Made by a program: the position numbers and the translations under genes. From Sedimentisphaerales bacterium (GTDB lineage Bacteria; Planctomycetota; Phycisphaerae; Sedimentisphaerales; Anaerobacaceae), in the NCBI GenBank assembly GCA_016933295.1, contig JAFGBG010000255.1:1185-65184 (forward strand): DNA of 64,000 nt, read 5' to 3'. The first letter of the stretch is position 1. Each line of letters opens with the position of its first letter. Shown here one piece after another: positions 8,660 through 39,390 of this stretch. The notes under the pieces are model-generated. The model was not told the origin of the DNA. It did not search any database and worked only from the letters and a program-made list of their open reading frames with translations.

Positions 8660-9604
8660 TTATCCTATCGCTCTGACAATTCTCGTTCTAATACCCGCCG
8701 GTTTGGCTTTTTCAGGTACGATGCAATTAACAGCGTGCGGTAATACGTTGATTTCAACCGGAAGCGCCGGTCCGGGATCACCGTCAATTTCAGTTCTTAT
8801 GGAACTTACATCAGAACTTACATTAATGTTTTTACCCTGACGGTAGATAACATCACGAGAATTAGCATGGTGTTTCAAAACCGTCATCATCGAATGCTTT
8901 ATAAGATGAATCCGGGATGCACATTTATAAATACATACATCCAGCAGGCCATCGCCGAAATCAGCATAATGTAAAATCTGCAGGCCTATAGCATATCTTG
9001 AAATGTTTCCCACAAATACAAGTCCCGGGCCGTCATAGATTTGTTCCCCGTCAACCTGAATCCTCATCGGAGCAAACTCATAACCCCAAAAAGTCCGCCA
9101 GATAGGCCAGAAGTAATCAAAGTGATTGATATGACCGTCTCGCTGCTCGCTAACCTTTTTAACCACTTCCCCGTCAAAACCGAAACCGGCAATAGAAGTA
9201 AAACATCTGCCGTTGACATTTCCCAAATCCAGAGGTCGAATATATCCGGCTTCAAACGTCCTTACCAAAGTCTTTAACTTTTCATCGAAGCCCAATTCGT
9301 TTGCCAGCAGATTCTCCGTGCCGCTGGGCATTATAAGCAACGGCTTATCACTTCCTTCGAGTCCGTGCGCCACTTCCCTGACCGTGCCGTCACCGCCGGC
9401 AACGATAACCATAGCGCAATCATAATCGACCGCCGCATCGGTAGCGAGCTCACAGGCATGATGCAGAGAAGTTGTTAGATTGCTTCTGACCTCATATCCG
9501 CTTTTAACAAGATATCGTTCAAAGCGGCGCCCCATAATTTTCGTGCAGGTTGCGCCGGATTTCGGATTAACAATATAAGCGATGTAACCATCCTGGGGTT
9601 TCAT
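8660..9604 (-). CDS. Diacylglycerol-kinase-family lipid kinase (YegS/BmrU-like)
   Basis: It carries the GGDGTVREV and PSGTENLLANELG motifs at a typical length. Confidence 0.85.
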   Translation of the reverse strand: MKPQDGYIAYIVNPKSGATCTKIMGRRFERYLVKSGYEVRSNLTTSLHHACELATDAAVDYDCAMVIVAGGDGTVREVAHGLEGSDKPLLIMPSGTENLLANELGFDEKLKTLVRTFEAGYIRPLDLGNVNGRCFTSIAGFGFDGEVVKKVSEQRDGHINHFDYFWPIWRTFWGYEFAPMRIQVDGEQIYDGPGLVFVGNISRYAIGLQILHYADFGDGLLDVCIYKCASRIHLIKHSMMTVLKHHANSRDVIYRQGKNINVSSDVSSIRTEIDGDPGPALPVEINVLPHAVNCIVPEKAKPAGIRTRIVRAIG

Positions 9605-9629
9605 AAAATTTACAGCGTTACGGCGTAAT

Positions 9630-10166
9630 TTAATCTTTGCCGGATTTACTTTTTTCCATAATCAAAGCCGCATAGCTTTTTTTAATATGCGGCAAATTAC
9701 CGAGGCCCAGACTTTTTTGCACTTCTGAGATTTTTTCGTCGTCCGGCCCCTCGATTTCCACAAATTCGCCTAATTCCTTCAACTTATCCAAGGCAACTTC
9801 ACAACCTCCGAATTTCCAGAGGCGGCGTTTTTTATCAACGGACAATCTCCGTTCGTATCCGAGGGCGGCAAGAAGTTTCTCCGCCGATTCCGCATCACCA
9901 ACTTCAAATTCAATCTCCTGCCGCTTCTTGTAGTTACTTTTTTCTTTCGCGCCTTTATACGTCAAAAAAAGTCTTATAGTTTCACCAACCACCTGCCGGC
10001 GCAATCTAAGACATTTGTCAGATCCAGATAAGTTCGCACTCAAATCGTCGAAATGAATATCACTCTGGTCCTGCTCGGCCACAAATTCGGCATCAAGCTG
10101 CCGGAGTTTATTCTCTACCTCGGCCAGCGAATCAACTTTTAGTTTTGCTTCAATTTCAATAAACAT
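9630..10166 (-). CDS. CYTH-domain protein (class IV adenylate cyclase / triphosphate tunnel metalloenzyme, CyaB-like)
   Basis: It starts MFIEIEAKLKV (EXEXK), is about 180 aa long and has the alternating charged beta-strands of the tunnel fold. Confidence 0.8.
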   Translation of the reverse strand: MFIEIEAKLKVDSLAEVENKLRQLDAEFVAEQDQSDIHFDDLSANLSGSDKCLRLRRQVVGETIRLFLTYKGAKEKSNYKKRQEIEFEVGDAESAEKLLAALGYERRLSVDKKRRLWKFGGCEVALDKLKELGEFVEIEGPDDEKISEVQKSLGLGNLPHIKKSYAALIMEKSKSGKD

Positions 10167-10197: not shown

Positions 10198-10695
10198 TTA
10201 TAGAGCAGCCTTTATGGCATCCAGCCGGCCTTTGGCGCCTGCCTGCTCACCTTCAGAATCAAAAAACTTGATTAGCTGCTCGCAAGGATATTCGCTGCAA
10301 TATGCACAATTCTCAAGTTTTTTTTCGCTCGCGCATTTCCTTATTTTGCACTTCTGACAGCCGGAATACAATCTTCCTCCTTGAGCCCTGCATCCATCGC
10401 AATCAGTAATCTCTTCCAGACGTTTTTCCTCGCCGAGATATTCCTTAATGGCGATGACAATCTGCTCCCTCATTTGTCTTTGTTTGACGGCATTTTTCTC
10501 TCTCGTCGCCATGTAAATTTGGCAAGTTACACAATTTAATCCGCAATAAGCAATCATTTCCGATGCCATCTTTTCATCTTCTCTTTTTCCAGACTGGTTA
10601 TTACAACCGGTAAGCACAACGCCTCCCAGTAACATTCCTGCCGCCGTGCCTGCTCCACGAACAAGAAAGCACCTTCTGCTACATTCTATACACAT
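10198..10695 (-). CDS. DUF3795-type Cys-rich protein with a Tat-like/lipoprotein leader
   Basis: Cysteine clusters are CGLNCVTC, CDGCRAQGG, CQKCKIRKC and CAYCSEYPC. The N-terminus has SRRCFL followed by an LTGC lipobox. Confidence 0.7.
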   Translation of the reverse strand: MCIECSRRCFLVRGAGTAAGMLLGGVVLTGCNNQSGKREDEKMASEMIAYCGLNCVTCQIYMATREKNAVKQRQMREQIVIAIKEYLGEEKRLEEITDCDGCRAQGGRLYSGCQKCKIRKCASEKKLENCAYCSEYPCEQLIKFFDSEGEQAGAKGRLDAIKAAL

Positions 10696-13789: not shown

Positions 13790-14908
13790 TTATTTCCAAT
13801 AACGAATATCATAGGGATTACTACACCGAAGCCAGCTCAGTGCCACCGTGGCAAAATCGACAATACCTATAAAGCCGTCACCGGCCAGATCCGCTTCCAA
13901 TGAAGAATCGTATATGGAAAACACTTCGTCACTGACATCATAGACACCCATATTGGCGCTATTATTAATTCGAACGATACACTGATTAGAATCGACGAGA
14001 GGCACAAGCCATTTGTAGCTGCCGGTGTTTCCGACATTAGGCGGAAAAACATTCACCCATGAATTGCCGTTGTCTATTGAAAATTCGATAAGGACACTAT
14101 CGACTATTCCCGTATAACTCCATGTAATATCATAAGTGATTCCACCCGTTAAAACCTCCGAACCGTTGGGAGACAATAAGGTCAATTCGGAAGATTCGGC
14201 GACGACTGTACGCAATCGATTCAAATCCTGCAAACCCCACTGATTGGGTGAGCCGAAAGTGCTTAAATTTATGCCGTCGTCATAGTCCGGCGAATCAGCT
14301 ACAATCGAGGCGCTCGGCTTGGCTTCAAGTCTGAATATGTCCGTATTCCCGATTCCGCTCACCGGGCTGACGCCTTCACCGGCGGGACCGAATATGACGG
14401 TATTATCTTTATTTCTTATTATAAGCTGCCAATTGTTGGAACTCACAGGAAAAGAGGAATCTTCAATATAAAGCCCGTCACCACTATCGCTCGCCTGAAC
14501 ATTTATCCACCAGTCACCCGCTGCCGGATTATAGCTGATATCGCTGGGCAGGTCTTCGGAAACGGTGATGATAGTACCGCTTCGCAAATCGGACCAAATG
14601 CTGTGGTCCGTCAAATCCAAAGTTTCATCGAGCGAACCATTATCGTAGATATCAAACTTCCATTCCCGCATATCCAGATGATCGGTAATTACCACCAATT
14701 CGAACCAGTCACCGCCATTGCCCTGAACGCGCCCAAAATAACTATCGGATGCACGGCCTCCATCAGCGTCGGCCGCGGCATTTCCGCCATTAAGAAATTC
14801 CGAACTGCTGACAGCATTATATTCGTTTAGAATAACATCAGATGCATATGTAAATCCTGAAATGAGCAGGATTGCACAAACCATTAAAAACGCATTAATC
14901 TTCCACAT
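13790..14908 (-). CDS. Secreted lamin-tail-domain (LTD) protein with an Ig-like domain and a dockerin-like C-terminal motif
   Basis: The signal peptide MWKINAFLMVCAILLISGFTYA begins at the ATG at 14908, although the ORF is open to 14989. The LTD pattern is VILNEYNA...GGDWFELVV. The C-terminal motif is DLAGDGFIGIVDFATVALSWL. Confidence 0.7.
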   Translation of the reverse strand: MWKINAFLMVCAILLISGFTYASDVILNEYNAVSSSEFLNGGNAAADADGGRASDSYFGRVQGNGGDWFELVVITDHLDMREWKFDIYDNGSLDETLDLTDHSIWSDLRSGTIITVSEDLPSDISYNPAAGDWWINVQASDSGDGLYIEDSSFPVSSNNWQLIIRNKDNTVIFGPAGEGVSPVSGIGNTDIFRLEAKPSASIVADSPDYDDGINLSTFGSPNQWGLQDLNRLRTVVAESSELTLLSPNGSEVLTGGITYDITWSYTGIVDSVLIEFSIDNGNSWVNVFPPNVGNTGSYKWLVPLVDSNQCIVRINNSANMGVYDVSDEVFSIYDSSLEADLAGDGFIGIVDFATVALSWLRCSNPYDIRYWK

Positions 14909-15061
14909 TTCCCGTATTCCTTTCTTATTAAGTATTTCATAAATCTTTCTTGTCATTTTCCGGAACGTCCTGCATTTCTTCCACACCACAAAATCGATGA
15001 ATTCCGCCGACCCGGATTGTGACTGGTCGATGTCGGATTTGGAGGACGCTGCTGAAAATGG

Positions 15062-16693
15062 TTATTCACTGACAAGTATTTCTTTCTCCATGCCTTTTTC
15101 CCACATACCGTCCGGCCGGACCTGCAATACTCCGGTATCGCGGTAAAAATTTAGCATTGCAATGGTATAATTCACTAACGCATCAGTGGCTTCATTTTGA
15201 GCATCAATCATGTCGCTTTGAGCACTGAGAACCCGGCGGCTGCTCGCTCTGGAATATTGCATCAATGTATAAGTTTTTCTATACCTTTCCTGAGCGAGTT
15301 GAAAACCCTCTTTCTGAAGTTTGTACCTTTCGGCCGCTTTTTTCAAATCACGCAAAGCCTGCCGTACTTCCATTGCAACAGTATCCGATGCCAATTCATA
15401 TTCTCGCCGGCTCTGATTCAGTGTAATCAAAGCCTTGCGATAGACGTTCTGTTCGGCCACACGATCCAGCGGCAGGTCCAGATTAATATCCAGAAGATAG
15501 TCTTCGGTAAATTGCACATTTCGACGATTACCCCGATCTCCTGCGACAACATCGGCCGAGCCTGTCAGGTTTAATTCAGCCCGCAGAGCATCGGCAGCTA
15601 CGACAACTTTTCGCCGGGCATCAATAACGCGATCTGCATAATTAATCAAATCGAGCCTACGAGATAAAGCCGTGTGTATTGATTCACCTTCATCAAAATC
15701 AGTATCAAGGGTGTCGATAGCCCTCAATGTATCAAGCTCATTCTCATCCAAACGAAACTCAGATGTGGTGGGCAAACCCAACGTTATTTTGAACTGATCA
15801 AGAGAGAGCTCGTATTCTTTCTGAGCCTGAACAAGAACATCCTGAACCTGAAGCATCTCTTGTTTAATCCTGTCAAGCTCATAAGCCGGCAAACGACCGG
15901 CATCTTTCAATTTTTCAATACGCCGGGCTAACTGAGTCAATGTATCGTAATTTGCTTCCGTCGTTTTTACAATGTCATGGAGTTTTATAACCTGATAGTA
16001 CTGAGTGATAACCGAGACCACAAATAACTGACGAAATCTGCTGAAGTTACGAATCTGATAGAGCGTATCTCTATCAGCTTGTACAAGAGGTTCCAACACA
16101 ATATTGGGGTCGCTGCCCCGCAGGAACGGTTGAGTAACAGCCGCAGACAGGATAGATGTCAGACCACTGCGCATATTGCCGGTGAGCACATCGACATAAG
16201 CCGCCGAGATTTTCGCGCTGATTATTGTGCCATAAGATAAAAGTCTATTAAAACCAAGATTCGCTTCGACTCCAGTTAATTCATCATTTCTATCGGCTCC
16301 ATAGCCCCCGCTTAATCCTCCCATATATTGGGTTTCAAACAAGTGACGCACCAATCTTAGATCCAAAGCCGAAGTATATAAAAGCTCCTTTTGAGTCTGG
16401 TAGTCTCTGTTATGAGCCGTTGCAATCGCAACCGCACGTGATAAATCGAGCCCTTCTCCGGCAGAGATTTCCTTATTAATTTGAATATCGTTGGGTAACG
16501 GAGCTACATCACTGATTTTATAATTCGCCCTGCTGCCGAATTCATCCTGCCACTTTTGGTCGATAATACGATATACTTGAGCATCCGCTTCGGCTTTATA
16601 ATCTTTTGATGTACACCCGGCAATAAAGCACAAGCTTACAAGTATGTACACTATTATATATCGGAATCCTGAATTTTTATTATTACTCGGCAT
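15062..16693 (-). CDS. TolC/NodT-family outer-membrane efflux lipoprotein
   Basis: It has the lipobox LCFIAGC and two OEP-type repeats with long coiled-coil segments. It is 543 aa long. Confidence 0.85.
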   Translation of the reverse strand: MPSNNKNSGFRYIIVYILVSLCFIAGCTSKDYKAEADAQVYRIIDQKWQDEFGSRANYKISDVAPLPNDIQINKEISAGEGLDLSRAVAIATAHNRDYQTQKELLYTSALDLRLVRHLFETQYMGGLSGGYGADRNDELTGVEANLGFNRLLSYGTIISAKISAAYVDVLTGNMRSGLTSILSAAVTQPFLRGSDPNIVLEPLVQADRDTLYQIRNFSRFRQLFVVSVITQYYQVIKLHDIVKTTEANYDTLTQLARRIEKLKDAGRLPAYELDRIKQEMLQVQDVLVQAQKEYELSLDQFKITLGLPTTSEFRLDENELDTLRAIDTLDTDFDEGESIHTALSRRLDLINYADRVIDARRKVVVAADALRAELNLTGSADVVAGDRGNRRNVQFTEDYLLDINLDLPLDRVAEQNVYRKALITLNQSRREYELASDTVAMEVRQALRDLKKAAERYKLQKEGFQLAQERYRKTYTLMQYSRASSRRVLSAQSDMIDAQNEATDALVNYTIAMLNFYRDTGVLQVRPDGMWEKGMEKEILVSE

Positions 16694-16763
16694 CTATATA
16701 TCTGTCACCTGTGATTTATAAATTATCTCATACGAGCATTTTCAGAAACATCTTTCAGAAGTA

Positions 16764-17984
16764 TTACAAAGCCCTTATCCCCACTAATTCACCAGCAATC
16801 AGCTCCAGCCCCTCAGGAATTTTTATGACTATCGGCTGACCCCACTGAGGAAAATTAGGATTTCGCCACAACTGCTCCGGCATAAGTTCAAGCGTCGGAC
16901 CAATGTATTTAACCTCACATCTTGCCTTCTGCTCCGGCGGCCTGCTCTTAAAAACTTCAACCTGCGTACGCTCATCGACCAATCCCAATTGACTTTCGCT
17001 TACATAGGCTATGATTTCGCTCGGTCTGTTTTCAGCGACAGACAAAATTGATTCGCCGGCCTGAATTACTTCGCCGGTCCGGCGAATAACGTCCTCGCCC
17101 GGCCTTCGCAATATAGCTTGATTCGCCCGACCCTGAAGCGAGATCACAACACCAGCAAATGGAGCCTTCAATTCCACTACCCGTCGTGCATTTAGTGCCT
17201 CAAGCTGTTGTACAATACCATTAACCACCTCCTCTTGAACCTTTATTTCTTTTCTTATGACTTCAAGGGCATTGTCTATAGAGGGATGTGTCAGTTGAAG
17301 TTGAGAAAAATCATCCAGTCTTTGCTTCGCTGTTACATAATCTTTCTCGACCTGAGCAAGCATCATTTCATTTTCTGAGATTTTTTTGGCCAAACTGTCA
17401 TGCTGCGCTTTTACTTTTTGTAGTTCATAAGGTACAACAGCATCTTCCTTAAGCAAAGCTTCGGTAATTTTCACATCGGATGCCAGGTCTGCCAGTAACA
17501 CACGGTCAGACGCTATTTGTGCTTTTAATGACAATATCTCAAGTCTTGACTGGTCGGCATCGATAAGAAATCTCCTCAACTCCGTAGCAAAGTTAATTTC
17601 TCGATCAGCCTTATCAGCCAGCAGAGCATCCTGTGTGGGCACCAATTGAGCCGTCAGGTGCTCTATCTCCGCCACGGCCGCATTCAACTGTGATCTCAAA
17701 TCGGCTTCTACCATGTTGTCATCATCAAGAACAGTATCGATTACAGCCAATGTTTGTCCGGCTTCAACCTGCTCGAATAAATCGACACAGACTTCTGTTA
17801 ACCTTCCTGTACTTGTAGCTGAAATCTGCCGAACTTGCCCCCTTGCCATACCCAAGACTTCAAATCGCTGTGAACGACGTGTAAAAAGGCCGATAACACA
17901 TAATACCGCTCCCAGCCAGACTATCACCGGAAATACGTGACGACGTATACGAAACGGATAACCCTTTAGATATACCCTTTTCAT
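16764..17984 (-). CDS. HlyD-family membrane fusion (periplasmic adaptor) protein
   Basis: It has an N-terminal TM helix (FPVIVWLGAVLCVIGL), a lipoyl-like segment (QVEAGQTLAVID), a long coiled coil and a C-terminal beta-barrel. Confidence 0.8.
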   Translation of the reverse strand: MKRVYLKGYPFRIRRHVFPVIVWLGAVLCVIGLFTRRSQRFEVLGMARGQVRQISATSTGRLTEVCVDLFEQVEAGQTLAVIDTVLDDDNMVEADLRSQLNAAVAEIEHLTAQLVPTQDALLADKADREINFATELRRFLIDADQSRLEILSLKAQIASDRVLLADLASDVKITEALLKEDAVVPYELQKVKAQHDSLAKKISENEMMLAQVEKDYVTAKQRLDDFSQLQLTHPSIDNALEVIRKEIKVQEEVVNGIVQQLEALNARRVVELKAPFAGVVISLQGRANQAILRRPGEDVIRRTGEVIQAGESILSVAENRPSEIIAYVSESQLGLVDERTQVEVFKSRPPEQKARCEVKYIGPTLELMPEQLWRNPNFPQWGQPIVIKIPEGLELIAGELVGIRAL

Positions 17985-17991
17985 ACGTTAC

Positions 17992-18690
17992 TCATACCTC
18001 CAGTAGCTGTTCTTGCATTGTCAGGTTGATATTTTCAAGCCCTTCAACCTTTTGCAGTTCTGACAACAACTGCTGATTCATTGCAGCATTTCGAATCATT
18101 AACTGGTAGGCATATTCTACCTCGTTCACTCCGAAACCGGTGCTTTGAGCAGAGATTAGCGTGAAACTTCCGCAAAAACGCCTGAGAATAGAGGGAACCG
18201 GACTTTCAGGTCCCATTTGGCCTTTGGAAACGAATCGCAAGAAACCGTTATGCGGCTGATGTGTGCCAAATGCGACCACATACAAATATATGATTATTAA
18301 ACAAAGAATAATAGTTCCTACAACAGCCACAGCATATCGCTGAGAACCTGAAGCCATCCCAACCACAAGCGCGCAGAAAATGAAGGCGATATCCCTTGTA
18401 TCTTTAACGATGTTACGAAAACGTATAATCGCAAGGGCGCCCATTAAACCGACCGCAGTAATGATACTCGTACCAATTACGGCCATCACCATTGCCACGA
18501 CAACAGTAATAACAATCAACGACTGGACAAAAGACCTCGAATAGGACAAACCACTATGTGTAAAATAATATACCCAGGCCAATAGCTGTCCCAAAACAAA
18601 AGCCAGCAACAGCGATAAAAGAACCGCCTCCGGCGTAAACGGCCCTGCCGTTAACGGAGTTCCTTCTAATATTTCCCATATTCTATCCAT
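17992..18690 (-). CDS. DUF4956-family integral membrane protein
   Basis: It has four predicted TM helices, the signature GLMGALAIIRFRNIVKDTRDIAFIF and a soluble C-terminal domain. Confidence 0.75.
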   Translation of the reverse strand: MDRIWEILEGTPLTAGPFTPEAVLLSLLLAFVLGQLLAWVYYFTHSGLSYSRSFVQSLIVITVVVAMVMAVIGTSIITAVGLMGALAIIRFRNIVKDTRDIAFIFCALVVGMASGSQRYAVAVVGTIILCLIIIYLYVVAFGTHQPHNGFLRFVSKGQMGPESPVPSILRRFCGSFTLISAQSTGFGVNEVEYAYQLMIRNAAMNQQLLSELQKVEGLENINLTMQEQLLEV

Positions 18691-19508
18691 TATTCATTAC
18701 CCTGCACAACAGGCGCGCAAAATCTTAATAAAAGCGAATCTTCAACCGACGAAGCATATTTTGATATTGATCTTTGCCGCAGGTTAAAATACTTGACCAT
18801 CTGGCTTAACCACGTCGGGTAATGATCGGTAAACTTTATCTCTAAAATAACTCCGCCATTTGTAAAAGGATTCCTCTGCCAACCCCCGCCGGAAAGCCTG
18901 ACATGAGGCAAATCTGTGACACAATATGACAGATCCCGGTCAAAGGTCACCCTTACCCTGTTGTGCATATTACATTCATAGGCACGCCGCATATAGCGAA
19001 TAAGAACCACCGGTTTCGCACGAATACTGTTAAGGTATAACTGAAACTGATTTATCGTATCAGTATCGGCGGTATAATTTTGCGGCGGCAGCGGAATCCC
19101 GGCAAGTATATTAGTAATATCACTGCTCATAACACGCGCACGGCTTTTGATAATAATCGTATTCATGCGGCGTTTTATCTCGAGGAAGCGGGGATAATCA
19201 GGCTCATCCGTATAGCTTCGTATTCTTAACTTAAAGCGGTTTTTGTGACCACGAAGACTTTCCTTGCAAAGCCTCAATTCATCTGAATCCAAATAAAGGC
19301 TCACAATGGGATAATCGCCGTTACGATGTAATTTTGAATACCGATCCATCTGTATATAAGGTTTGATAAACTGGGTGATACCCTCAGCCGTAGATTCACT
19401 AATATGATATTTCATTTCGTGACGGCACTTCAAGGTACGATCGGGCACATTATCCGGCATACCCGAAGAATCAGGCGTGTCATCAAACTGTTTTTTTTTA
19501 TTAAGCAT
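18690..19508 (-). CDS. VTC-domain (polyphosphate polymerase-like, CYTH-like triphosphate tunnel) protein
   Basis: Tunnel-strand motifs are HEMKY, RFKLRIRSY, FLEIKRR and ILEIKF. Its stop overlaps the DUF4956 start by 1 nt. Confidence 0.75.
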   Translation of the reverse strand: MLNKKKQFDDTPDSSGMPDNVPDRTLKCRHEMKYHISESTAEGITQFIKPYIQMDRYSKLHRNGDYPIVSLYLDSDELRLCKESLRGHKNRFKLRIRSYTDEPDYPRFLEIKRRMNTIIIKSRARVMSSDITNILAGIPLPPQNYTADTDTINQFQLYLNSIRAKPVVLIRYMRRAYECNMHNRVRVTFDRDLSYCVTDLPHVRLSGGGWQRNPFTNGGVILEIKFTDHYPTWLSQMVKYFNLRQRSISKYASSVEDSLLLRFCAPVVQGNE

Positions 19509-19815
19509 GAATGTCTAATCAGTAAAGCTACGATAAAAGTCTCAAAAAAACCAAACAAACAACAAATATAGCAAAAACAATACCCCTTCCTGTTTTATGC
19601 ACTGTTGCCCTTTGCTCCGAGCTATGGGAGTCCTACTCCATATCACAAAGGCTCAAAACGATACAACCACCCGCCCAAATGGCTTTTACGCATCCAATAG
19701 CTTATCAAAAAGCCTTAAAATATTACCTATTCTAACATATATTTAGTAAATAAGTCAATACTAAACTAATCGAGGGCCGGGATATATTTTCATGTCTCTA
19801 TTTTGCTGATTTTTC

Positions 19816-30955: not shown

Positions 30956-31903
30956 TCAGATTTGCATCTCGCCGAGCCATTTATCCGACTGCGACTTGCT
31001 ATATCCCAAAAATGCCGAATCCGATGCAATATTTTCCCCAATGGAGCTTTTGTAAGATTCAAAGAATTTACCAGCATGGCGCTTATTTGTATTTGCATAA
31101 CAATATACACATCCATGCGGACATGTGTCATAGGTTCCTATGTCCGAGCTTTCCGCGCAGCCGCATTCCGATCTTGTGGGCTTCTGTTTATATTCGAAAC
31201 TTTCCGGGAAGAAAAGGGTTTTAATAACTTCGCCGTCGATACAGTGACCTTTTCCGATTCTTTCGTTAATCAAATAATCGCCGCAGCAGGAATACATCCG
31301 GATTCCATAACCCTCTGCTATCCGGGCCAGTTCGTTTGCCAACTCGATCTTATACTTCTCACTCACATTCAAAATTTTCACACCGCTTACTCTCTCAAGC
31401 TCTTTGAAATTACGAATGACTTTGCCGTATTCGGTAACGAAGCTAAAATAACATCTCTCAACCAGACCGGCGAAATCCCCGGCAAGTTTTGCAAAAGCTT
31501 TTATGAAAAAATCCCCGTCGCAAATATCCGAAATAATAATCGGGTCGAATCTCCAGTTAATATAACCGGGTGAATACATTCGGCTTAGCAGCTTTAATGT
31601 ATCAGTCGCAGATTCTCGATCGACATTACTCTCGAAAATATCCGGCAAGGCGGTAATAGTATAATTAAAATAAAATTTATATCCGAGACCTTCTATGACT
31701 TTAAGATTCTCCAGGAAAGGCGTAAAGTTCTTGGACCAGAATACAAAACACCAAACATCTTCGGGTTTTAGCGATACGATATATTTCTGTCCGCCGAAAG
31801 GATTGACCACGCCGGCAAAACCTTCTCTGAGCCTGTTCATAAACCAGCCGCCGTAAAAGGCGGGAATATCCGTCCTGCGCGATACTGAAATTATCCTTTT
31901 CAT
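30956..31903 (-). CDS. DUF1848-family protein with a C-terminal CX3CX2C cluster
   Basis: The N-terminus is MKRIISVSRRTDIPAFYGGWFMNRLREG. The C-terminal cluster is CGCAESSDIGTYDTCPHGCVYC. An ATGA overlap links it to the upstream POT gene. Confidence 0.75.
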   Translation of the reverse strand: MKRIISVSRRTDIPAFYGGWFMNRLREGFAGVVNPFGGQKYIVSLKPEDVWCFVFWSKNFTPFLENLKVIEGLGYKFYFNYTITALPDIFESNVDRESATDTLKLLSRMYSPGYINWRFDPIIISDICDGDFFIKAFAKLAGDFAGLVERCYFSFVTEYGKVIRNFKELERVSGVKILNVSEKYKIELANELARIAEGYGIRMYSCCGDYLINERIGKGHCIDGEVIKTLFFPESFEYKQKPTRSECGCAESSDIGTYDTCPHGCVYCYANTNKRHAGKFFESYKSSIGENIASDSAFLGYSKSQSDKWLGEMQI

Positions 31904-33345
31904 TCGGCGTCCGCCGGCGCTTCGTCCTGGATATAAGTTTTACCTTTATAAAACTGCACCACAAAACAGAATATTATACCGGTGACCAGTAACAGGATGG
32001 TGAAAAACCAATAATAGCTCGGGCCTTCCAATTTTACCGTACCATCGGGATTCTGTATGAATTTGTTGACAAGCGAAATGAACAGGTTGCCCAATGAAAT
32101 CGACACAAGATACAACGAGGAGATAAACGATTTCATCGATTTAGGCGCCTGTGTATAAGCAAATTCCAAAGCAGGGATAGATATCAGAACTTCACCGGCA
32201 GTGATGAACCAGTAAGCAAGTACCTGCCACCAGATAGTCGGATCCGTCCCTGCCTGAATCCATTTTTCGAGAAGTGCCGGGATCGCAAAAGAAGGAATGG
32301 CAACGAAAAAGCCGATACCGATTTTTCGGAGCGGAGTAAGACGGAAGAATTTATTAATCAATGGATAAACAATGTAAGTAAAGAATGGAATGGTAATCAG
32401 AACAAGGATACAATTTACCGCCTGCATCTGTGCGGGAAGTATTTTCCATTCGATGTGATTAAGTCCCCATAATTTGCTCAGAAGCGAGCCAAAAAATGTC
32501 TGGTCTGATATGTTCCATTTCAGAAATGTAAGGTTCATTTCCTCGGCCTGGTATACCCACTTCGATGTAGTTTGATCGAACAGCGACCAGAAAACCGCTA
32601 CGAAGATAAACAAAAAAAAGGCCAAACGAATGAGGATTAATAATCCTTCCTTACTGAACAAATCCTCGAAGAAATCAGAACCTTTAGGGGGAATATGAAC
32701 CATGGATTTTCGACCCAACCAGTAAGTTATGATAGTCAGCATCATAAAAATGCCGGGTATGCCCAGGGCTATTCTGACGTTATTATATCTGTCATATATC
32801 CATGGCGATATGGCCATAGAGAAAAAAGCGCCTATATTAACCGCCCAATAGAACATATTGAATGCTCTGGTAATAAGGTGCTGGTTGGATTGTCCGAACT
32901 GATCTCCTAAATTTGCGGATAAACACGGCTTAATTATGCCGGAGCCTAACGCAATAAGGCCAAGGCCGATCATTGTTCCAATGTAACTCTGATCCACTGT
33001 TATTGTCAGAAAGCCAAGGAAGTACACTATCGAGAAAGCTATAATAGTTCGATATTTTCCAAGGAACACATCACTTATAATAGATCCTATGAACGGTGTG
33101 AAATAAGCGGCAGCTTTGAAATAATGTTTCCATTCCATCGCCTGTTCTTCAGTCAGTTTCGCGGGATTTCCATGCCAATCGATCAGGTTATTGACAAGAA
33201 ATAACGCCAAAATAGCATCGAATGCATAGAATGCGTATCTTTCTGTTGCCTCACTTATCATAATGTAGGGTGTTGAGGGAGGCATTTTTTTCGATGGTAT
33301 CGGTGCGGTAAGATATTTTGTTTTTGCCATATCAAATCCCGTCAA
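31900..33345 (-). CDS. POT/PTR2-family proton-dependent di/tripeptide transporter (MFS)
   Basis: The protein is polytopic with about 14 TM helices and has the PTR2-like motif SEATERYAFYAF near TM1. Confidence 0.85.
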   Translation of the reverse strand: MTGFDMAKTKYLTAPIPSKKMPPSTPYIMISEATERYAFYAFDAILALFLVNNLIDWHGNPAKLTEEQAMEWKHYFKAAAYFTPFIGSIISDVFLGKYRTIIAFSIVYFLGFLTITVDQSYIGTMIGLGLIALGSGIIKPCLSANLGDQFGQSNQHLITRAFNMFYWAVNIGAFFSMAISPWIYDRYNNVRIALGIPGIFMMLTIITYWLGRKSMVHIPPKGSDFFEDLFSKEGLLILIRLAFFLFIFVAVFWSLFDQTTSKWVYQAEEMNLTFLKWNISDQTFFGSLLSKLWGLNHIEWKILPAQMQAVNCILVLITIPFFTYIVYPLINKFFRLTPLRKIGIGFFVAIPSFAIPALLEKWIQAGTDPTIWWQVLAYWFITAGEVLISIPALEFAYTQAPKSMKSFISSLYLVSISLGNLFISLVNKFIQNPDGTVKLEGPSYYWFFTILLLVTGIIFCFVVQFYKGKTYIQDEAPADAE

Positions 33346-33562
33346 TTGAACAGCAATTTGTTTGTCATTCTTAATAAGTGCATATAGTACTAATAATGTA
33401 ATATGGTTACAAACAGGAAATCGCCGAATATAAAAAATACAAGCGTAATTTCAAATACCTAAAAACTGCTTGATTTCTCCTTTTATAGCCGATAATATTC
33501 CAAAAACAGTAAAGGAGAGCGATGACAAAACAACGACATAAATTTGAACAGGAGTACGAACG

Positions 33563-35242
33563 ATGAAGACCTTATCGGCAATTCTTATGATGTTGAGCCT
33601 GAGTATTGTTTTATTTGGATGTGCCCCCAGCGCGAAAGAGATACAAATGCAAGAATTCATACAAACACACGTCGAAAAAATCAAACCAATGGTAAAAGAG
33701 GCCGGCCTCGCTTCATGGGATGCGGCAAACAGCGGCAAAGAAGCCGACTACGACAAAGTCAGCGTCCTTACACTGGAACTTCGCCGGGTATATAGTGACC
33801 CAGACGATTTCGCCGTGATCAAAGAGGCGAAAGAATCCGGACAGGTCAAAAACCCCCTGCTGGCCCGGCAGGTGGATGTGCTGTACAATGCTTATCTCGG
33901 AAATCAGATAGAGCCGGAGCTTCTCAAGCAGATTGTCGAGCTCGGTACTGAAATAGAAAAGAACTTCAGCACATTCCGCGGCACAATCGACGGCGAAAAG
34001 GTCACCGACAATCAGATCAAGGAAATCCTGAAAACAGAAACCGATTCGGCAAAAAGAGAAAAAGCATGGCTCGCCAGCAAGCAGGTGGGCCCGGTGGTTG
34101 CCGACGACATAATTAAATTGATTAAGCTGCGAAATCAGGCCGCTCAAAAACTCGGTTTCGATAATTACCATACGCTTTCTCTGACCATCGCCGAGCAGGA
34201 TGTCGAAGAGCTTGATAAAATTTTCGCCGAGCTTTATGAGCTGACCAACGAACCTTTCGCCGAGCTAAAAGCGGAGCTGGACGAGAAACTCGCCGAACAC
34301 TGCGGCGTGGCCGTTTCCGAGCTTATGCCCTGGCACTACCACGATCCTTTCTTTCAGGAAACACCTCTGGTTTACGACGTTGACCTGGATGAGTACTACG
34401 AAGACAAAGATGTCAAAGAGCTGGCAACAAAATTTTATGCCGGCATAAATCTACCCGTCGAATCGATACTGGCAAAAAGTGACTTGTACGAGCGTCAAGG
34501 CAAAAACCCACACGCTTTCTGCACCGACATCGACAGAGAAGGTGACGTCAGGATTCTCTGCAATCTCAAAAACAACGAGACATGGATGGAAACCATCCTG
34601 CACGAGCTTGGTCACGGCGTTTATGACAAATACCAAGATCCCCAAACGCCGTACCTGCTGCGAGAACCGGCACACATCTTCACAACCGAGGCAATCGCGA
34701 TGTTCTTCGGGCGACTCAGCAGGAATCCCGCATGGATGCAGCAGATGCTGGAACTGACCGACGAGCAGCGAAGCGAAATAGAAAAAGTCAGCTTCAAATA
34801 CGCCCAGCTCAAGCAGCTTATCTTCGCCCGCTGGGCCATGGTCATGTATGACTTCGAGAAGCGGCTCTACGCCGATCCCGACCAGGACCTGAACCGCCTT
34901 TGGTGGCAGATTGTAGAAAAATACCAGCTTGTAAAAAGTCCGGCGGGCCGCAACGAACCGGACTGGGCGGCAAAAATCCATTTCACTATAGCACCGTGTT
35001 ACTATCATAACTATATGTTAGGCGAGCTGCTCGCCTCCCAACTGCAGAACTATATCGCCTACAAAGTCCTGAAGCTCGATTCGGACAAAGATGTAAGCTA
35101 TGTCGGCCAAAAAAAGGCCGGTGACTTTCTCGATGAAAAAGTATTCAAAGCCGGCGCCGTTTACGAATGGAACCGGATGATAGAGCGTGCGACGGGCGAG
35201 CCGCTGACTCCCAAATATTTTGTCGCCGAGTTCATCAAATGA
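33563..35242 (+). CDS. Lipoprotein zinc metallopeptidase, M2 (ACE-like peptidyl-dipeptidase)-like gluzincin
   Basis: It has the lipobox LFGC and HELGH, with a third-ligand Glu 25 residues after the second His (TTEAIAMF, compare HEAIGD in ACE). The N-terminal string ASWDAANSG resembles the ACE N-terminus. Assignment to M2 rather than M3 is from memory of motifs only. Confidence 0.6.
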   Translation: MKTLSAILMMLSLSIVLFGCAPSAKEIQMQEFIQTHVEKIKPMVKEAGLASWDAANSGKEADYDKVSVLTLELRRVYSDPDDFAVIKEAKESGQVKNPLLARQVDVLYNAYLGNQIEPELLKQIVELGTEIEKNFSTFRGTIDGEKVTDNQIKEILKTETDSAKREKAWLASKQVGPVVADDIIKLIKLRNQAAQKLGFDNYHTLSLTIAEQDVEELDKIFAELYELTNEPFAELKAELDEKLAEHCGVAVSELMPWHYHDPFFQETPLVYDVDLDEYYEDKDVKELATKFYAGINLPVESILAKSDLYERQGKNPHAFCTDIDREGDVRILCNLKNNETWMETILHELGHGVYDKYQDPQTPYLLREPAHIFTTEAIAMFFGRLSRNPAWMQQMLELTDEQRSEIEKVSFKYAQLKQLIFARWAMVMYDFEKRLYADPDQDLNRLWWQIVEKYQLVKSPAGRNEPDWAAKIHFTIAPCYYHNYMLGELLASQLQNYIAYKVLKLDSDKDVSYVGQKKAGDFLDEKVFKAGAVYEWNRMIERATGEPLTPKYFVAEFIK

Positions 35243-35281
35243 TATTCTTTTGACAACGCTTAATTTTTTCACAGGTGAGCC

Positions 35282-37441
35282 ATGAGTTTAGAAAACCGTT
35301 CATTACCCGAAATAACAATCAAAGCTTTCATTTTAGGCGTTCTTCTTTCCATGATTCTGGCCGCTGCGAACGCATACCTGGGTCTGTTCGCCGGGATGAC
35401 TGTCTCCGCGTCGATACCGGCGGCTGTCGTATCCATGGGCGTTTTGCGCCTGTTTCGCAAAAGCAATATCCTTGAAAATAATATCGTCCAGACCGCGGCT
35501 TCCGCCGGTGAGTCACTTGCCGCGGGAGTTATCTTCACCCTGCCGGCGCTGGTCATCATGGAATTCTGGACGGAATTCAATTTCTTCTGGATTACCATCA
35601 TTGCCGGATTCGGCGGTATTCTCGGCGTACTGTTCACGATCCCGCTTCGGCGCGCCCTTATCGTCGAAGGAAAGCTCAAGTTCCCCGAAGGCATAGCCAC
35701 TGCCGAGGTATTGGAAACCGGCCAACAGGGCGGCTCAGGCATTCGTTTGATAGCAATCGCTTCTGCGATCGGCGCTTTATTCAAAATCGGAGCCAAGGGC
35801 ATCGGATTCTGGCCCGAAGTTGTCGAAGTTGCCGGTCGTGTAAAAAGCTCCATCGCTTATTTCGGCTCCAATCTCAGCCCGGCACTGCTTTCGGTCGGCT
35901 ACATTGTCGGGCTTAACATTTCAATACTGATTTTTCTCGGCGGCGCGATGAACTGGTATGCCGCAATACCTATAGTAGCAACAGGGGAAAAATGGCCGAC
36001 TTACCAGCTTCTAAATAAAAATGTACCAGATGACTGGGATATAACGAGCGCGCAATATGGAATTATAAATCCGAACGATCCGAACGTCTGGAACAAAGAC
36101 GCAGACGAGGCCGTCGCATGGAACGTATTCGCACTAAAATTTAAGGTTGCCGACCCGAACGCATCAATATCCAAAATCAAAAAGGTACAGAAGCATAATA
36201 CCGAAATCAAAGAAAAATTAGGGAAATCCGTGGATACTGTTGAATATGCAAACCAAATATGGTCGAAGCGGACACGATACCTCGGTGTCGGCGGAATGCT
36301 ACTCGGCGGACTCTGGACAATATTTGCCATGAGAAAATCTCTATTCAGCGGCATAGCCAGCGGCCTGCGGGCATACAAAAAGATGAGCGTCGGAAGCGAA
36401 GAAATCCAAAGAACCGATAAAGATATGCCCATGAAATGGATACTCGTTCTTATCGTCGCTTCCATAGTCCCTCTCTATATCGTCTATCAATACTTCGTCA
36501 AAGATGTCACGGTCTCTCTGCCTATGGCCGTTGTTATGCTTGCGGCGGGATTCGTGTTCTCCGCCGTAGCCGGATATATGGCCGGCCTTGTCGGCTCGTC
36601 CAACAATCCAATCTCCGGCGTCACCATCGCGACGGTGACGGTCTCCGCCCTGCTGCTTGTCGTTCTTATGGGCCGCGACAATATATACGGCCCGCCCGCC
36701 GCTATCATTATCGGCAGCGTCGTCTGCTGCGCCGCCGCGATTGCCGGCGACAATATGCAGGACCTTAAAGCCGGCCAAATCGTCGGCGCGACCCCCTGGC
36801 GACAGCAGGTAATGCAAATCGTCGGCACGGTCTCAGGCGCTCTGGTTATCGCACCGGTCCTGATGTTACTGCACAAGGCCTACGGTTTTCGCGGCCAGCC
36901 CGGAGCCGGCTCGGACGCTCTCTCGGCGGTCCAGGCCAACCTGATGGCCTCGGTCGCCAAGGGAGTATTCAAGGGCGATTTGCCCTGGACCTATGTTTTC
37001 ATAGGTATGGGCATTGCCGCCGTGGTGATAGCTCTGGATCAATATCTCAAGAAAATCGGCAGCAGCTTCCGCACGCCGGTCCTGGCAGTCACTATCGGCA
37101 TCTATCTGCCGCTGGAACTGGCCGTCCCGATTTTTGCCGGAGGGCTAATCCATTATGCGACAAAACGTTACCACAACCGCGTGCGAACGCCGGCGGAAAA
37201 AGTCGAGGCCTCCGGCCGGAACGGCCTGCTGTTCGCATCCGGACTGATTACCGGCGAAGCACTCATGGGCATCATTTTGGCCATTCCAATCATTCTGCTC
37301 AAGCAATTCGACATAAATCTGCCGATTATCGAGCATTTTGGCAAGGCCATGCCCTTTGGCAATTGGATTGGTGCGGTGCTGCTTATCGGCGTGGCATACT
37401 GGCTCTATAAGACAGTTCGCGGCACAAAAACGACAGGATAA
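35282..37441 (+). CDS. OPT-family oligopeptide transporter (paralog 1, with a large soluble insertion)
   Basis: The N-terminus EITIKAFILGVLLSMILAAANAYLGLFAGMTVSASIPAAV is typical of bacterial OPT proteins. It is 719 aa long, versus 630 aa for paralog 2. The extra roughly 100 aa hydrophilic loop spans EKWPTYQLL...SKRTRY. Confidence 0.85.
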   Translation: MSLENRSLPEITIKAFILGVLLSMILAAANAYLGLFAGMTVSASIPAAVVSMGVLRLFRKSNILENNIVQTAASAGESLAAGVIFTLPALVIMEFWTEFNFFWITIIAGFGGILGVLFTIPLRRALIVEGKLKFPEGIATAEVLETGQQGGSGIRLIAIASAIGALFKIGAKGIGFWPEVVEVAGRVKSSIAYFGSNLSPALLSVGYIVGLNISILIFLGGAMNWYAAIPIVATGEKWPTYQLLNKNVPDDWDITSAQYGIINPNDPNVWNKDADEAVAWNVFALKFKVADPNASISKIKKVQKHNTEIKEKLGKSVDTVEYANQIWSKRTRYLGVGGMLLGGLWTIFAMRKSLFSGIASGLRAYKKMSVGSEEIQRTDKDMPMKWILVLIVASIVPLYIVYQYFVKDVTVSLPMAVVMLAAGFVFSAVAGYMAGLVGSSNNPISGVTIATVTVSALLLVVLMGRDNIYGPPAAIIIGSVVCCAAAIAGDNMQDLKAGQIVGATPWRQQVMQIVGTVSGALVIAPVLMLLHKAYGFRGQPGAGSDALSAVQANLMASVAKGVFKGDLPWTYVFIGMGIAAVVIALDQYLKKIGSSFRTPVLAVTIGIYLPLELAVPIFAGGLIHYATKRYHNRVRTPAEKVEASGRNGLLFASGLITGEALMGIILAIPIILLKQFDINLPIIEHFGKAMPFGNWIGAVLLIGVAYWLYKTVRGTKTTG

Positions 37442-37590
37442 CAGCCAAAAACGAGGCAAAATACAGCCGCAATGAGCCGATTCCAAACCGGTAGAATTTT
37501 GCATATGTCCTTGTCAAAAAAGAGCTTGCGCCAAAAACTCGTCCCGGCATAGCCGTAGGCGACGCCGGATTGGGTTCGTTTTCGATTTTT

Positions 37591-37794
37591 TTCATTCTGA
37601 ATTCTGTATTCTGTCTCCTGACTTCTGACGCTAGAATTGGCTTCGTTTTTTCAAATAACTTCGTAGGTCGTATTTGGTATGTCGTATGTCGGACAAAAAC
37701 GAGTTTTTCCTGGTTTTCACAACATTTAAAGAATTTAGGAATTTGAGCATTGGAATTTGTTTCGGATTTCGAGCTTAGTGCTTCGGATTTGTTC
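37591..37794. repeat. Block of short degenerate tandem repeats in a 540-bp intergenic region
   Basis: ATTCTG-type heptamers lie at 37591-37630, GTCGTAT x3 at 37659-37694, and GGAATTTG x2 plus TTCGGATTT x2 at 37738-37794. Confidence 0.55.
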
Positions 37795-37984
37795 TAAATC
37801 CCAACCTGCCCCCTACGAACTATCCATAGTTCAGTAACTATCTTACACGACGGCGGCAAAAATACAAGGAAAATCGCCGTTTTTATTAAAACAATCCTTG
37901 TTTTTATTGCTTTTCAAGACAAAAATATTAACAGTGATTATAGAAAAAATAGATTATTATTGTTCTTTTGAAAGTTATTAGCTT

Positions 37985-39373
37985 ATGAATAATCAGCCTT
38001 CTACCAGTCAAACAACATCCATGCGGGCGGCAATTTTCTTCGCGTCTATCCTGCTGGGTATTGCTGGCTTGCCGGCAAGCTCGGCGGCGGCAACTTTCGC
38101 CGGTAATTTGAATAACTCCGATACAACGACAGCCTCTGATAAAGGCGCCCTCGCCGGGCATCGCTATCGTGTGATTGTATCGACGGATATCGGCGGAACG
38201 GACGCGGACGACTTTCAGTCGATGGTGCATTTGCTCCTTTACGCAGACGTTCTCGACATCGAGGGACTAATCTCGTCGCCCTACGGCCCCGGTCGAAAAG
38301 AGCATATCCTTCAGGTCATCGACTGCTACGAGAAAGATTACGCCAACCTGAAGACGTATTCCGACAAATATCCCACACCCGACGCGCTGCGGGCAATAAC
38401 CAAACAGGGCGAGACCGAGATGGCTCCCTACGCCGGCGTGCGACGGCCGACCGAAGGCTCACAGTGGATTATCCACTGCGCGAAGCGAGACGACCCGCGG
38501 CCGCTACATGTCCTTATCTGGGGCGGCATTGACGACCTTGCACAGGCGCTGCATGATGCACCGGATATTCTGCCTAAGCTGCGTGTGTACTGGATCGGCG
38601 GGCCGAACAAAAAATGGAGCCCAGATGCTTACCAATATATCGTCACACACCATCCCAAACTATGGATAATAGAGTCCAACGTCACGTACTGCGGCTGGTT
38701 TGTCGGAGGCAATCAGTCGGGCGAATGGGGCAATAAGGAATTCGTAACCCAGCATATCGCGGGCAAAGGCGCGCTGGGTGATTTCTTTGTCTCCAAGAAG
38801 GCCGATGTCAAGATGGGTGATACGCCGTCAGTCGGCCGGCTGCTCAAGGGCACGCCCGACGACCCTACCAAGCCCGGCTGGGGAGGAAGCTTCGTGCGGG
38901 CATGGGAGCGTCCCTATAGCCGTTTCAAGCGGATGACCACAAAAGATGACCGCATGGAGCAATGCGGCATCCTCGAGCTTGTGCTCCCACTCGGTAACGA
39001 TGCACCGGAAAAGCCGGAGGCCCGGCTCGTCGTTGAAAACCAGTCGCTAATCGGTCATGCGCCCGGCGACGGCACGATTCGTTTCCGTTTCTGCCCGAAA
39101 GCTGCGAAGACCTATACCTTCACAATCCGAGGCAATGTGCCCTTTTTGGATGGCAAAACAGGCGGTATCACGGCTTACACGCCGCCACCCGATAGGGCGC
39201 AACAACCGGCGGCAAATTTGCGCAACTGGTGGACGGACAATCCGTCCCCGAAAGTATCAGAAGGACCGCTTATTGGGATCAAGACCATAAACCGCTGGCG
39301 AGAGGATTTTTTGCAAGATTTCGCCACCCGCATGAACCGCTGCCAGTCACCCGCCAAAACTAATACGAACTAA
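37985..39373 (+). CDS. DUF1593-domain (nucleoside-hydrolase-like) secreted protein
   Basis: It has a signal peptide and the string RVIVSTDIGGTDADDFQSMVHLLLYADVLDIEGLISS. Confidence 0.8.
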   Translation: MNNQPSTSQTTSMRAAIFFASILLGIAGLPASSAAATFAGNLNNSDTTTASDKGALAGHRYRVIVSTDIGGTDADDFQSMVHLLLYADVLDIEGLISSPYGPGRKEHILQVIDCYEKDYANLKTYSDKYPTPDALRAITKQGETEMAPYAGVRRPTEGSQWIIHCAKRDDPRPLHVLIWGGIDDLAQALHDAPDILPKLRVYWIGGPNKKWSPDAYQYIVTHHPKLWIIESNVTYCGWFVGGNQSGEWGNKEFVTQHIAGKGALGDFFVSKKADVKMGDTPSVGRLLKGTPDDPTKPGWGGSFVRAWERPYSRFKRMTTKDDRMEQCGILELVLPLGNDAPEKPEARLVVENQSLIGHAPGDGTIRFRFCPKAAKTYTFTIRGNVPFLDGKTGGITAYTPPPDRAQQPAANLRNWWTDNPSPKVSEGPLIGIKTINRWREDFLQDFATRMNRCQSPAKTNTN

Positions 39374-39390
39374 AAAAAATAACAAGTTCT

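Follow-up and report, generated by a model that had tools for sequence, protein, structure and literature searches.

A VTC-DUF4956-periplasmic adaptor gene cluster in Phycisphaerae as a candidate system for polyphosphate export across the bacterial envelope

Polyphosphate (polyP) occurs on bacterial surfaces and outside cells, its synthesis in bacteria is attributed to PPK1 and PPK2, and to our knowledge no export route for bacterial polyP is known. The window analysed here, a stretch of 64,000 nucleotides (nt) from a metagenome-assembled genome (MAG) of a Sedimentisphaerales bacterium (Phycisphaerae, Planctomycetota; assembly GCA_016933295.1, contig JAFGBG010000255.1, positions 1,185 to 65,184), raises the question of such a route. 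At positions 13790-19508 it carries five minus-strand open reading frames (ORFs) in which a VTC-domain protein related to the yeast polyP polymerase Vtc4 and a DUF4956 membrane protein are followed by a periplasmic adaptor of the membrane fusion protein (MFP) type, a TolC-family outer-membrane factor (OMF) and a secreted protein. What would a polymerase-like enzyme do beside the parts of a trans-envelope duct that has no pump of its own? The reading favoured here, to which we give an even chance, is that the operon encodes a polymerisation-driven, envelope-spanning polyP exporter working through DUF4956, the adaptor and an outer channel.

Gene order and linkage of the cluster

The genes of the cluster, in the order in which they are read, are the following.

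18690..19508, minus strand: VTC-domain triphosphate-tunnel enzyme (ORF1), 272 amino acids (aa), soluble, a Vtc4-like candidate polyP polymerase (PF09359)
17992..18690, minus strand: DUF4956 membrane protein (ORF2), 232 aa, with 4-5 helices and a C-terminal ACT-like domain, distantly MgtC/YhiD-like (PF16316)
16764..17984, minus strand: EmrA/HlyD-type periplasmic adaptor of 406 aa (HlyD_3, HlyD_D23), in which a very long alpha-hairpin is combined with an N-terminal membrane helix and a beta-barrel
15062..16693, minus strand: TolC-family OMF, 543 aa, with a lipoprotein signal (ending in FIAGC; PF02321)
13790..14989, minus strand, probable start 14908 from aligned homologues: secreted protein (ORF5), an optional member of the cluster, 399 aa if read from GTG

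A preliminary description of this DNA had reported five same-strand genes with close junctions and no hairpin terminators between them, and the ORF list and the window sequence bear this out. The VTC and DUF4956 genes share one base at 18690 (TAATG), the gap from DUF4956 to the adaptor is 7 nt, that from the adaptor to the OMF 70 nt, and that from the OMF to ORF5 72 nt from GTG 14989 or 153 nt if ORF5 starts at ATG 14908. A hairpin scan of every gap found no terminator-like hairpins, and the one-base overlap and the 7-nt gap are kept in independent gene calls. The flanks consist of housekeeping genes, with hom-apgM-lysC upstream and divergent, and leuS downstream on the same strand, followed by genes for a DUF3795 protein, a CYTH protein and a YegS/DAGK-like kinase.

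The conservation of this order was examined in two samples of the same Phycisphaerae-type clade, namely 80 species-representative loci (the nearest of 226 relatives, all of them MAGs, with VTC proteins 57-78% identical) and the nearest 80 metagenome matches, the neighbours in both being scored by phmmer. DUF4956 follows VTC in 79/80 species loci and 61/61 metagenome loci, and the adaptor follows DUF4956 wherever there is room for it on the contig (77/77 and 51/51, together 128/128), these in-clade counts coming from related genomes and not from independent events. The entire region from hom-apgM-lysC to leuS-CYTH-DAGK is syntenic in the closest relatives; hom lies upstream in only 13/49 species loci, so that the triad of VTC, DUF4956 and adaptor persists where flanking synteny is lost.

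A distant sample was formed by eight 50%-identity representatives with VTC proteins 32-45% identical to that of the window, whose labelled clusters belong to Planctomycetota and Candidatus Sumerlaeota; these are few, and most of the contigs are assumed to come from diderms. All eight (8/8) show the order VTC-DUF4956-MFP, interrupted in L172 and L179, as listed below.

L172: CotH-VTC-LTD-DUF4956-MFP-OEP
L174, L175 and L178: VTC-DUF4956-MFP
L176 and L177: LTD-CotH-LTD-VTC-DUF4956-MFP
L179 (Candidatus Sumerlaeota cluster): VTC-DUF4956-178 aa protein-MFP-LTD-CotH-LTD
L180: LTD-CotH-LTD-194 aa protein-VTC-DUF4956-MFP-LTD-CotH-LTD

A profile built from 89 Phycisphaerae adaptors matches all eight downstream proteins (E=1e-48 to 1e-91), and the distant MFPs are therefore considered orthologues of the adaptor and not generic members of the family. 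The linkage is thus not a peculiarity of this genome, which the preliminary description had named as a ground for giving up its proposal, and the VTC-DUF4956-MFP arrangement is far beyond chance.

Five Gram-positive records were also inspected. VTC and DUF4956 are adjacent in 5/5 and no adaptor is seen in 5/5. The third gene encodes CotH in three of the records, and in the remaining two a Cthe_2159 domain protein and, in Acetoanaerobium, a PLD-family protein; a group of CotH, polyP polymerase and DUF4956 has also been noted at pel loci (PMC12345266). CotH or lamin-tail domain (LTD) proteins occur in 5/8 distant loci as well, and the association of VTC genes with CotH and LTD proteins, cited in the preliminary description, is accordingly real both there and in the Gram-positives. 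In the Firmicutes loci L088:4712-6822, L170:3729-5637 and L171:7539-9558, look-alikes of an OmpR-type response regulator and a histidine kinase, judged by their N-terminal sequences, adjoin the VTC-DUF4956 pair.

The adaptor is thus found only where a periplasm is expected, which is the pattern of a part needed only to cross the periplasm. Third-party neighbours of the cluster are mostly extracytoplasmic (CotH, LTD-CotH-LTD, Cthe_2159, ORF5 and DUF3616 proteins), and the universal pair, the adaptor restricted to diderm-type loci and the mostly secreted partners together form the signature of an envelope-crossing cargo. The literature searched holds no co-mention of VTC and DUF4956, no function for a bacterial VTC protein and no link of such a protein to MFP/OMF genes; the parts are of known kinds, and their combination and phyletic pattern appear new.

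MFP and OMF proteins are usually components of pumps, and the preliminary description had pointed out that the cluster lacks one. No ATP-binding cassette (ABC), resistance-nodulation-division (RND) or major facilitator superfamily (MFS) pump is present among the ORFs and profile matches of the cluster, no such family recurs in an all-against-all clustering of the ORFs of the 80 species loci, and the gene tables of the eight distant loci contain none of these and no AaeB-type pump; the nearest transporters in the window, POT and OPT peptide importers, lie >12 kb away. The adaptor and OMF might serve an unlinked ABC, MFS or RND pump and stand beside VTC-DUF4956 by inherited gene order, the latter pair then having an inner-membrane or regulatory role such as MgtC-like phosphate or ATP homeostasis. 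The synteny of the whole region in the closest relatives does mean that part of the conservation is shared ancestry, and MgtC, a distant relative of DUF4956, is described as a regulator (PMC12345266). However, the triad outlives the flanking synteny and recurs with an orthologous adaptor at 32-45% VTC identity, adaptor genes normally adjoin their pump and none is recurrent here, and only 7 nt separate DUF4956 from the adaptor. An unlinked pump is accordingly regarded as very improbable.

Proteins encoded by the cluster

ORF1 matches the VTC family PF09359 (E=4.7e-38; 131.5 bits, cutoff 23), the match extending from position 2 to 232 of the 235 in the profile, and no hydrophobic segments were detected in it. 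A full-library search with a threshold of E<=1e-3 found VTC-domain proteins that form 4,553 clusters at 50% identity; the best 150 representatives are all single-domain proteins of about 250-300 aa, all too short for a fusion of VTC with DUF4956, of which none was found among them. An alignment of 61 diverse relatives contains 21 invariant positions, and its profile matches the yeast Vtc4 structures 3g3q (E=6e-17), 5iiq and 8i6v, the worst of these matches having E=1.5e-15; a search of the PDB chains with the single VTC sequence gave no useful match, so that only the profile search succeeded. The motifs quoted in the preliminary description (RHEMKY, RFKLRIRSY, FLEIKRR, ILEIKF and IRFRNIVKDTRD) are all found in the sequence.

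Residue equivalences, counted along the printed profile alignment in the native numbering of 8i6v, pair K33 of the window protein with K200 of Vtc4, R95 with R264, R97 with R266, K112 with K281, Y172 with Y359, R174 with R361, R186 with R373, E223 with E426 and S249-K250 with S457-K458. All ten mapped tunnel residues are kept in the window protein and all but S249 are invariant in the 61 relatives. K200, K281, Y359, R361, R373, S457 and K458 are taken by us to be catalytic or substrate residues of Vtc4. R264, R266 and E426 are the residues that were mutated to inactivate the yeast VTC complex (PMC9911596). The basic tunnel residues and the family membership, on which the preliminary description had made its proposal depend, are thus both present; ORF1 is, judged by its sequence, a VTC family member with an intact tunnel, for which polyP synthesis may be predicted from yeast Vtc4.

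ORF2 was correctly recognised beforehand as a DUF4956 protein, scoring 49.5 bits against PF16316 (cutoff 30.6); with MgtC (PF02308) it scores 19.5 bits, under the cutoff of 31.4. Relatives are annotated 'YhiD' by JGI. Sequence searches of the PDB chains with DUF4956, the adaptor and the OMF returned no useful match. The AlphaFold2 (AF2) model of DUF4956, which is of low confidence, predicts five helices within residues 20-138 and a beta-alpha-beta-beta-alpha-beta fold at 147-225, for which the best Foldseek matches are ACT domains and the C-terminal domain of MgtC (2lqj), weak at E about 0.01-0.03; the matches point weakly to an ACT-like tail and to no other part of the protein. The predicted layout is in line with the account given of SIR_1592, the homologue in Streptococcus intermedius, in which ACT is joined to a four-helix MgtC-like domain (PMC12345266). 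Across the species-level loci DUF4956 is the best conserved protein of the cluster, with a median identity to the window protein of 73.7%, the corresponding values being 62.1% for VTC, 49.7% for the adaptor, 53.2% for the OMF and, for comparison, 77.3% for LeuRS. R90-F91-R92 is invariant in 13 sequences from Planctomycetota to Firmicutes, taken from diderm and Gram-positive loci, and the only other invariant positions of this cross-phylum alignment, besides the start Met, are Y50, F54, G111 and G115.

The HlyD-type adaptor of the preliminary description is upheld by matches to HlyD_3 (40.6 bits, cutoff 22.2) and HlyD_D23 (35.9 bits, cutoff 30) and by a fold model resembling EmrA. In the AF2 model a transmembrane (TM) helix at 13-37 precedes a hairpin with arms of roughly 90 residues (87-179 and 185-268), predicted at pLDDT >90, and a C-terminal beta-barrel, and the model contains no membrane-proximal domain. 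Foldseek places EmrA (4tko, E=6e-10) first, followed by EmrAB-TolC, MacA, HlyD and LipC. Conservation in the membrane helix is no lower than in the remainder of the protein (column identity 0.79 vs 0.75). Adaptors of the EmrA, HlyD and MacA type work with inner-membrane partners that have no large periplasmic domains, and an adaptor of this type fits a small inner-membrane partner such as DUF4956.

The fourth protein had been described as a NodT-type lipoprotein of the TolC family. The family and the lipobox FIAGC stand, since it matches the OEP profile PF02321 in two stretches, or repeats, with 67 bits (cutoff 22); the NodT label, for which only the lipobox speaks, is weak, the NCBIfam NodT model giving 16 bits against a cutoff of 210 and the NCBIfam TolC model likewise staying far under its cutoff. 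Where there is room on the contig, the gene after the adaptor encodes an OMF in 52/63 species and 22/30 metagenome loci, and a secretin adjoins the adaptor in 6/63 and 5/30. The secretin takes the place of the OMF in several deep-branching Phycisphaerae lineages and is recognised by PF00263 (E about 1e-43) together with Secretin_N and STN. The conserved core of the system is VTC-DUF4956-MFP, with the OMF as a frequent but replaceable fourth part, and the outer-membrane neighbour has been exchanged in the course of evolution.

The adaptor itself varies with this neighbour. A two-residue insertion at the hairpin tip is present in 11/11 secretin-adjacent adaptors and 0/52 OMF-adjacent ones, and the tip sequence also differs. 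The adaptor of L125 is 57-68% identical to secretin-type adaptors and 47-56% to OMF-type ones, and nests among the former in a simple distance (neighbour-joining) tree, yet an OMF adjoins it and its tip is of the OMF type. Because this tip matches the adjacent OMF and not the closest relatives of the adaptor, the comparison of sequences argues that the adaptor truly pairs with whichever outer channel is encoded beside it.

Examples of the orphan secretins that follow the adaptor are L078:13247-15094 (plus strand), L049:3805-5565 (minus) and L040:4635-6530 (minus). A DUF3616 protein of about 370 aa usually comes after the secretin, and no type II secretion or pilus genes were noticed near it in the ORF lists of the loci inspected.

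For ORF5, an alignment with 18 homologues (53-79% identity) favours the start at ATG 14908, ahead of a signal peptide, which is followed by a conserved N-domain of ~230 aa (ADVILNEYNAV...DWFELVV...), an Ig-like domain and a variable C-terminal tail. No Pfam family is matched above threshold, and only weak Ig-like matches (Big_7, Kre9_KNH, Reelin-B) are seen. The preliminary description had taken this protein for an LTD/dockerin-like surface partner. Its ILNEY...DWFELV...W pattern is LTD-like by eye and could not be substantiated in four tests: there is no match to these domains at E<=10 for the protein alone, nor at E<=0.1 in 19 homologues; hhalign gives a probability of 0.3 against the human lamin tail (the lamin sequence being entered by hand); and the ORF5 profile misses the genuine LTD and LTD-CotH proteins of the distant loci. 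Homologues follow the OMF in 24/47 species loci and 6/21 metagenome loci and are absent from the closest long contigs, L001-L005. ORF5 is treated here as an optional secreted client of the system, with DUF3616 in its stead in other lineages and LTD-CotH proteins outside the clade.

In L172, L176, L177, L179 and L180 the VTC-DUF4956-MFP genes have beside them genes for very large secreted proteins of the LTD-CotH-LTD type (884-1713 aa), for example at L176:4445-7846 and L179:11364-16505; L180 has one on each side and then a protein with a legume-type lectin domain. This suggests CotH kinase-like proteins as extracellular clients of the VTC-DUF4956-MFP system. No CotH gene was found among the ORFs scanned in the window.

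Proposed export route and its alternatives

As a polyP exporter the operon would work as follows. At the cytoplasmic face the VTC protein would use ATP to build polyP inside its basic tunnel, as yeast Vtc4 does, and the nascent chain would enter an oligomer of DUF4956. Here the Arg-Phe-Arg motif may act like the Lys/Arg ring of the TM1 helices of yeast Vtc, R90 and R92 being proposed, by inference from this analogy only, as an anion-contact site. The membrane-anchored adaptor would form a long alpha-helical periplasmic duct docking to the TolC-like lipoprotein or, in some lineages, apparently to the secretin, and the polyP would end outside the cell or on its surface. Polymerisation, through the ATP that it uses, would supply the energy, as it does for the yeast VTC complex and for synthase-dependent polysaccharide secretion, and such a supply would explain the absence of an ABC, RND or MFS pump. 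The extracytoplasmic clients would be ORF5 or DUF3616 proteins within this clade and, for other lineages, LTD-CotH kinase-like proteins. That this is the first dedicated bacterial polyP secretion system, and that DUF4956 adds a new class to the inner-membrane partners of MFP/outer-channel ducts, beyond the ABC, RND, MFS and AaeB-type transporters, is put forward only tentatively.

Several observations weigh against such an exporter, in addition to the relatedness of the in-clade genomes stated above. The AF2 model of DUF4956 is poor (pLDDT 61), because its input alignment was shallow (74-91% identity), and the MgtC/YhiD proteins that DUF4956 resembles include, in MgtC, a regulator and no channel (PMC12345266). 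In agreement with the preliminary description, which named no demonstrated function for bacterial VTC genes, the literature searched holds no experiment on any bacterial member and no measured activity for any bacterial VTC-domain or DUF4956 protein. As to the outer membrane, no outer-membrane gene is adjacent in 5/63 species and 3/30 metagenome loci (8/93 in-clade), among the distant loci only 1/8 has a neighbouring OMF, and in 10/11 cases the secretin gene is convergent, lying on the other strand. TolC-type ducts have acidic constrictions, we know of no precedent for a partnership of a secretin with an MFP, and the passage of a polyanion through a TolC-like duct is doubtful.

These features of the outer membrane step bear on the alternative that polyP crosses the inner membrane only, forming a periplasmic store or cation buffer comparable to that of the yeast vacuole, with the adaptor as a scaffold or copolymerase and the outer channel dispensable or used for occasional release. 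The periplasm of Planctomycetota is large, the invariant unit is VTC-DUF4956-MFP without the OMF, and an outer-membrane gene is missing from the neighbourhood in the above in-clade loci and in 7/8 distant ones; the yeast VTC complex, too, fills a storage compartment with polyP (PMC9911596). Against this, an unlinked TolC is common in tripartite systems, so that little can be concluded from a missing neighbour; the hairpin tip, with which EmrA/HlyD-type adaptors dock to the OMF, is conserved and co-varies with the adjacent outer channel; and the third-party proteins are mostly secreted. Periplasmic deposition is consequently thought unlikely.

The chemistry of the tunnel bears on the nature of the cargo. 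At the position of Thr198 in Vtc4 the bacterial VTC proteins carry Glu31, which is invariant, and Arg91/Lys93 stand in place of Ala, because of which the chemistry of the bacterial enzyme may differ from that of Vtc4; these differences, too, count against polyP as the exported product. VTC and DUF4956 might instead energise a new type of tripartite pump for another cargo, such as a phosphorylated surface polymer or a metal complex, with VTC hydrolysing ATP or triphosphate or transferring phosphate to the cargo. Triphosphate-tunnel enzymes include hydrolases and cyclases, the invariant Glu brings the bacterial proteins nearer to the generic ExExK motif, the Gram-positive VTC-DUF4956 pairs sit within exopolysaccharide loci, and deletions of DUF4956 and CotH lower Pel-dependent aggregation in S. 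intermedius (PMC12345266). However, every mapped residue of the Vtc4 polymerase site is kept, including S457-K458 and Y359, and the 80 Phycisphaerae loci have no recurrent genes for making a cargo. A cargo other than polyP is judged quite unlikely.

Surroundings of the cluster and comparison with known systems

Two features were identified upstream of the VTC gene.

19729..19758, minus strand: sigma-70-type promoter with an extended -10 element (TTGACT, 18 nt, TG-n-TAGAAT), found by consensus scan ~220 nt 5' of the VTC start
19509..19728, minus strand: leader of the VTC gene, a long 5' stretch behind the promoter, without a recognised RNA element

The promoter pattern TTGAC[TA]-N15-20-T[GA]TTA[GCA]AAT is present 5' of VTC in 38/61 species-level loci with >=300 nt upstream, and stands out in the alignment as TTGACT-N17-18-TGTTA[G/A]AAT, a conservation that is unusually strong for a non-coding element given the 57-78% protein identity among the relatives. 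A riboswitch or other structured leader was considered and ruled out: no match in the window attains the gathering score of any Rfam family, and RNAalifold predicts no conserved pairs in 21 leaders; only the promoter is conserved.

Downstream of leuS, at 8660-10166 (minus strand), a second triphosphate-tunnel protein (CYTH, 178 aa) and the YegS/DAGK-like lipid kinase (314 aa) are encoded. The CYTH gene occurs in 33/80 loci and the kinase in about 24/80, mostly together and downstream of leuS; L033 and L034 have the leuS-CYTH-kinase block in inverted orientation, still <4 kb from the adaptor. The DUF3795 protein between leuS and CYTH (10198-10695, minus strand) is cysteine-rich with a twin-arginine-like signal and occurs in only few of the related loci (L035, L084).

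Farther away, the region 31900-44168 encodes a POT transporter, an M2/M3-like peptidase, two OPT oligopeptide transporters, a HEAT-repeat protein and a Sde182 nucleoside-hydrolase-like protein, a peptide-uptake neighbourhood which is unrelated to the cluster; no transporter genes were found elsewhere among the scanned ORFs of the window. The minus-strand stretch 46023-54240 includes a gene for a likely extracytoplasmic function (ECF) sigma factor of 175 aa. It also encodes an anti-sigma factor of 618 aa that is FecR-like and has an NPCBM domain, and a pair of very large secreted proteins with Laminin_G_3, of which one has a purple-acid-phosphatase N-terminal domain. A membrane protein with PIN and TRAM domains is encoded at 56619-57839 (plus strand), and a similar one just downstream of the adaptor at L031:13519-14634 (minus strand), probably by coincidence.

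Comparison with known systems places the candidate polyP exporter between several of them. With the eukaryotic VTC complex (Vtc4/Vtc3/Vtc1) it shares the Pfam domain, the conserved catalytic tunnel residues, the genetic tie of a soluble catalytic domain to a small multi-helix membrane protein, and the proposed coupling of synthesis to translocation (PMC9911596). It differs in that the bacterial protein has neither an SPX domain nor a fused or adjacent Vtc1-type (DUF202) three-helix TM domain, its partner being the unrelated DUF4956, a separate polypeptide with an ACT-like tail, and in the addition of an MFP and an outer channel.

Tripartite efflux and type I secretion systems (EmrAB-TolC, MacAB-TolC, HlyBD-TolC) offer an adaptor architecture that is closest in EmrA, and an adjoining TolC-family gene. 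In contrast to them, no ABC, MFS, RND or AaeB-type transporter is found here or in about 170 related loci, DUF4956 occupies the usual position of the pump with the tunnel enzyme ahead of it, and a secretin replaces the OMF in some lineages.

The alginate system Alg8-Alg44-AlgK-AlgE likewise combines an inner-membrane polymerase, an MFP-like periplasmic copolymerase and an outer pore, and draws on the energy of polymerisation (PMC3815931, PMC4436075), with Alg44 as the MFP-like copolymerase that links the alginate synthase to the outer components (PMC3815931). The polymer here would, however, be inorganic, and the outer channel is TolC-like or a secretin and not an AlgE-type barrel. A profile scan of the five cluster proteins found no family-2 glycosyltransferase, no PilZ or cyclic di-GMP module and no TPR scaffold, and the likeness to synthase-dependent secretion is functional only.

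The Gram-positive CotH-VTC-DUF4956 module of pel and other exopolysaccharide loci has the same gene pair and an extracytoplasmic partner; it differs in that those loci are without adaptor and outer-membrane genes, and this clade has ORF5 or DUF3616 and not CotH. MgtC/YhiD/SapB proteins resemble DUF4956 in having few helices and a C-terminal ACT-like domain, and in weak Pfam and fold matches to MgtC, whereas DUF4956 stays under the MgtC cutoff, has a distinct RFRN-KDTRD signature and is obligately paired with VTC.

The comparative pattern provides a concrete model for the function of the VTC-domain proteins, with their 4,553 clusters, and of their constant DUF4956 partners. If the model is true, polymerisation-coupled translocation would be extended from the yeast vacuole to the bacterial envelope, and MFP/TolC parts would have a use without a pump. 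Exported polyP could then be an extracellular phosphoryl donor or an anchor for the LTD-CotH kinase-like proteins, ATP being unavailable outside the cell, and such export could bear on phosphorus and metal cycling by the abundant anaerobic Planctomycetota of sediments.

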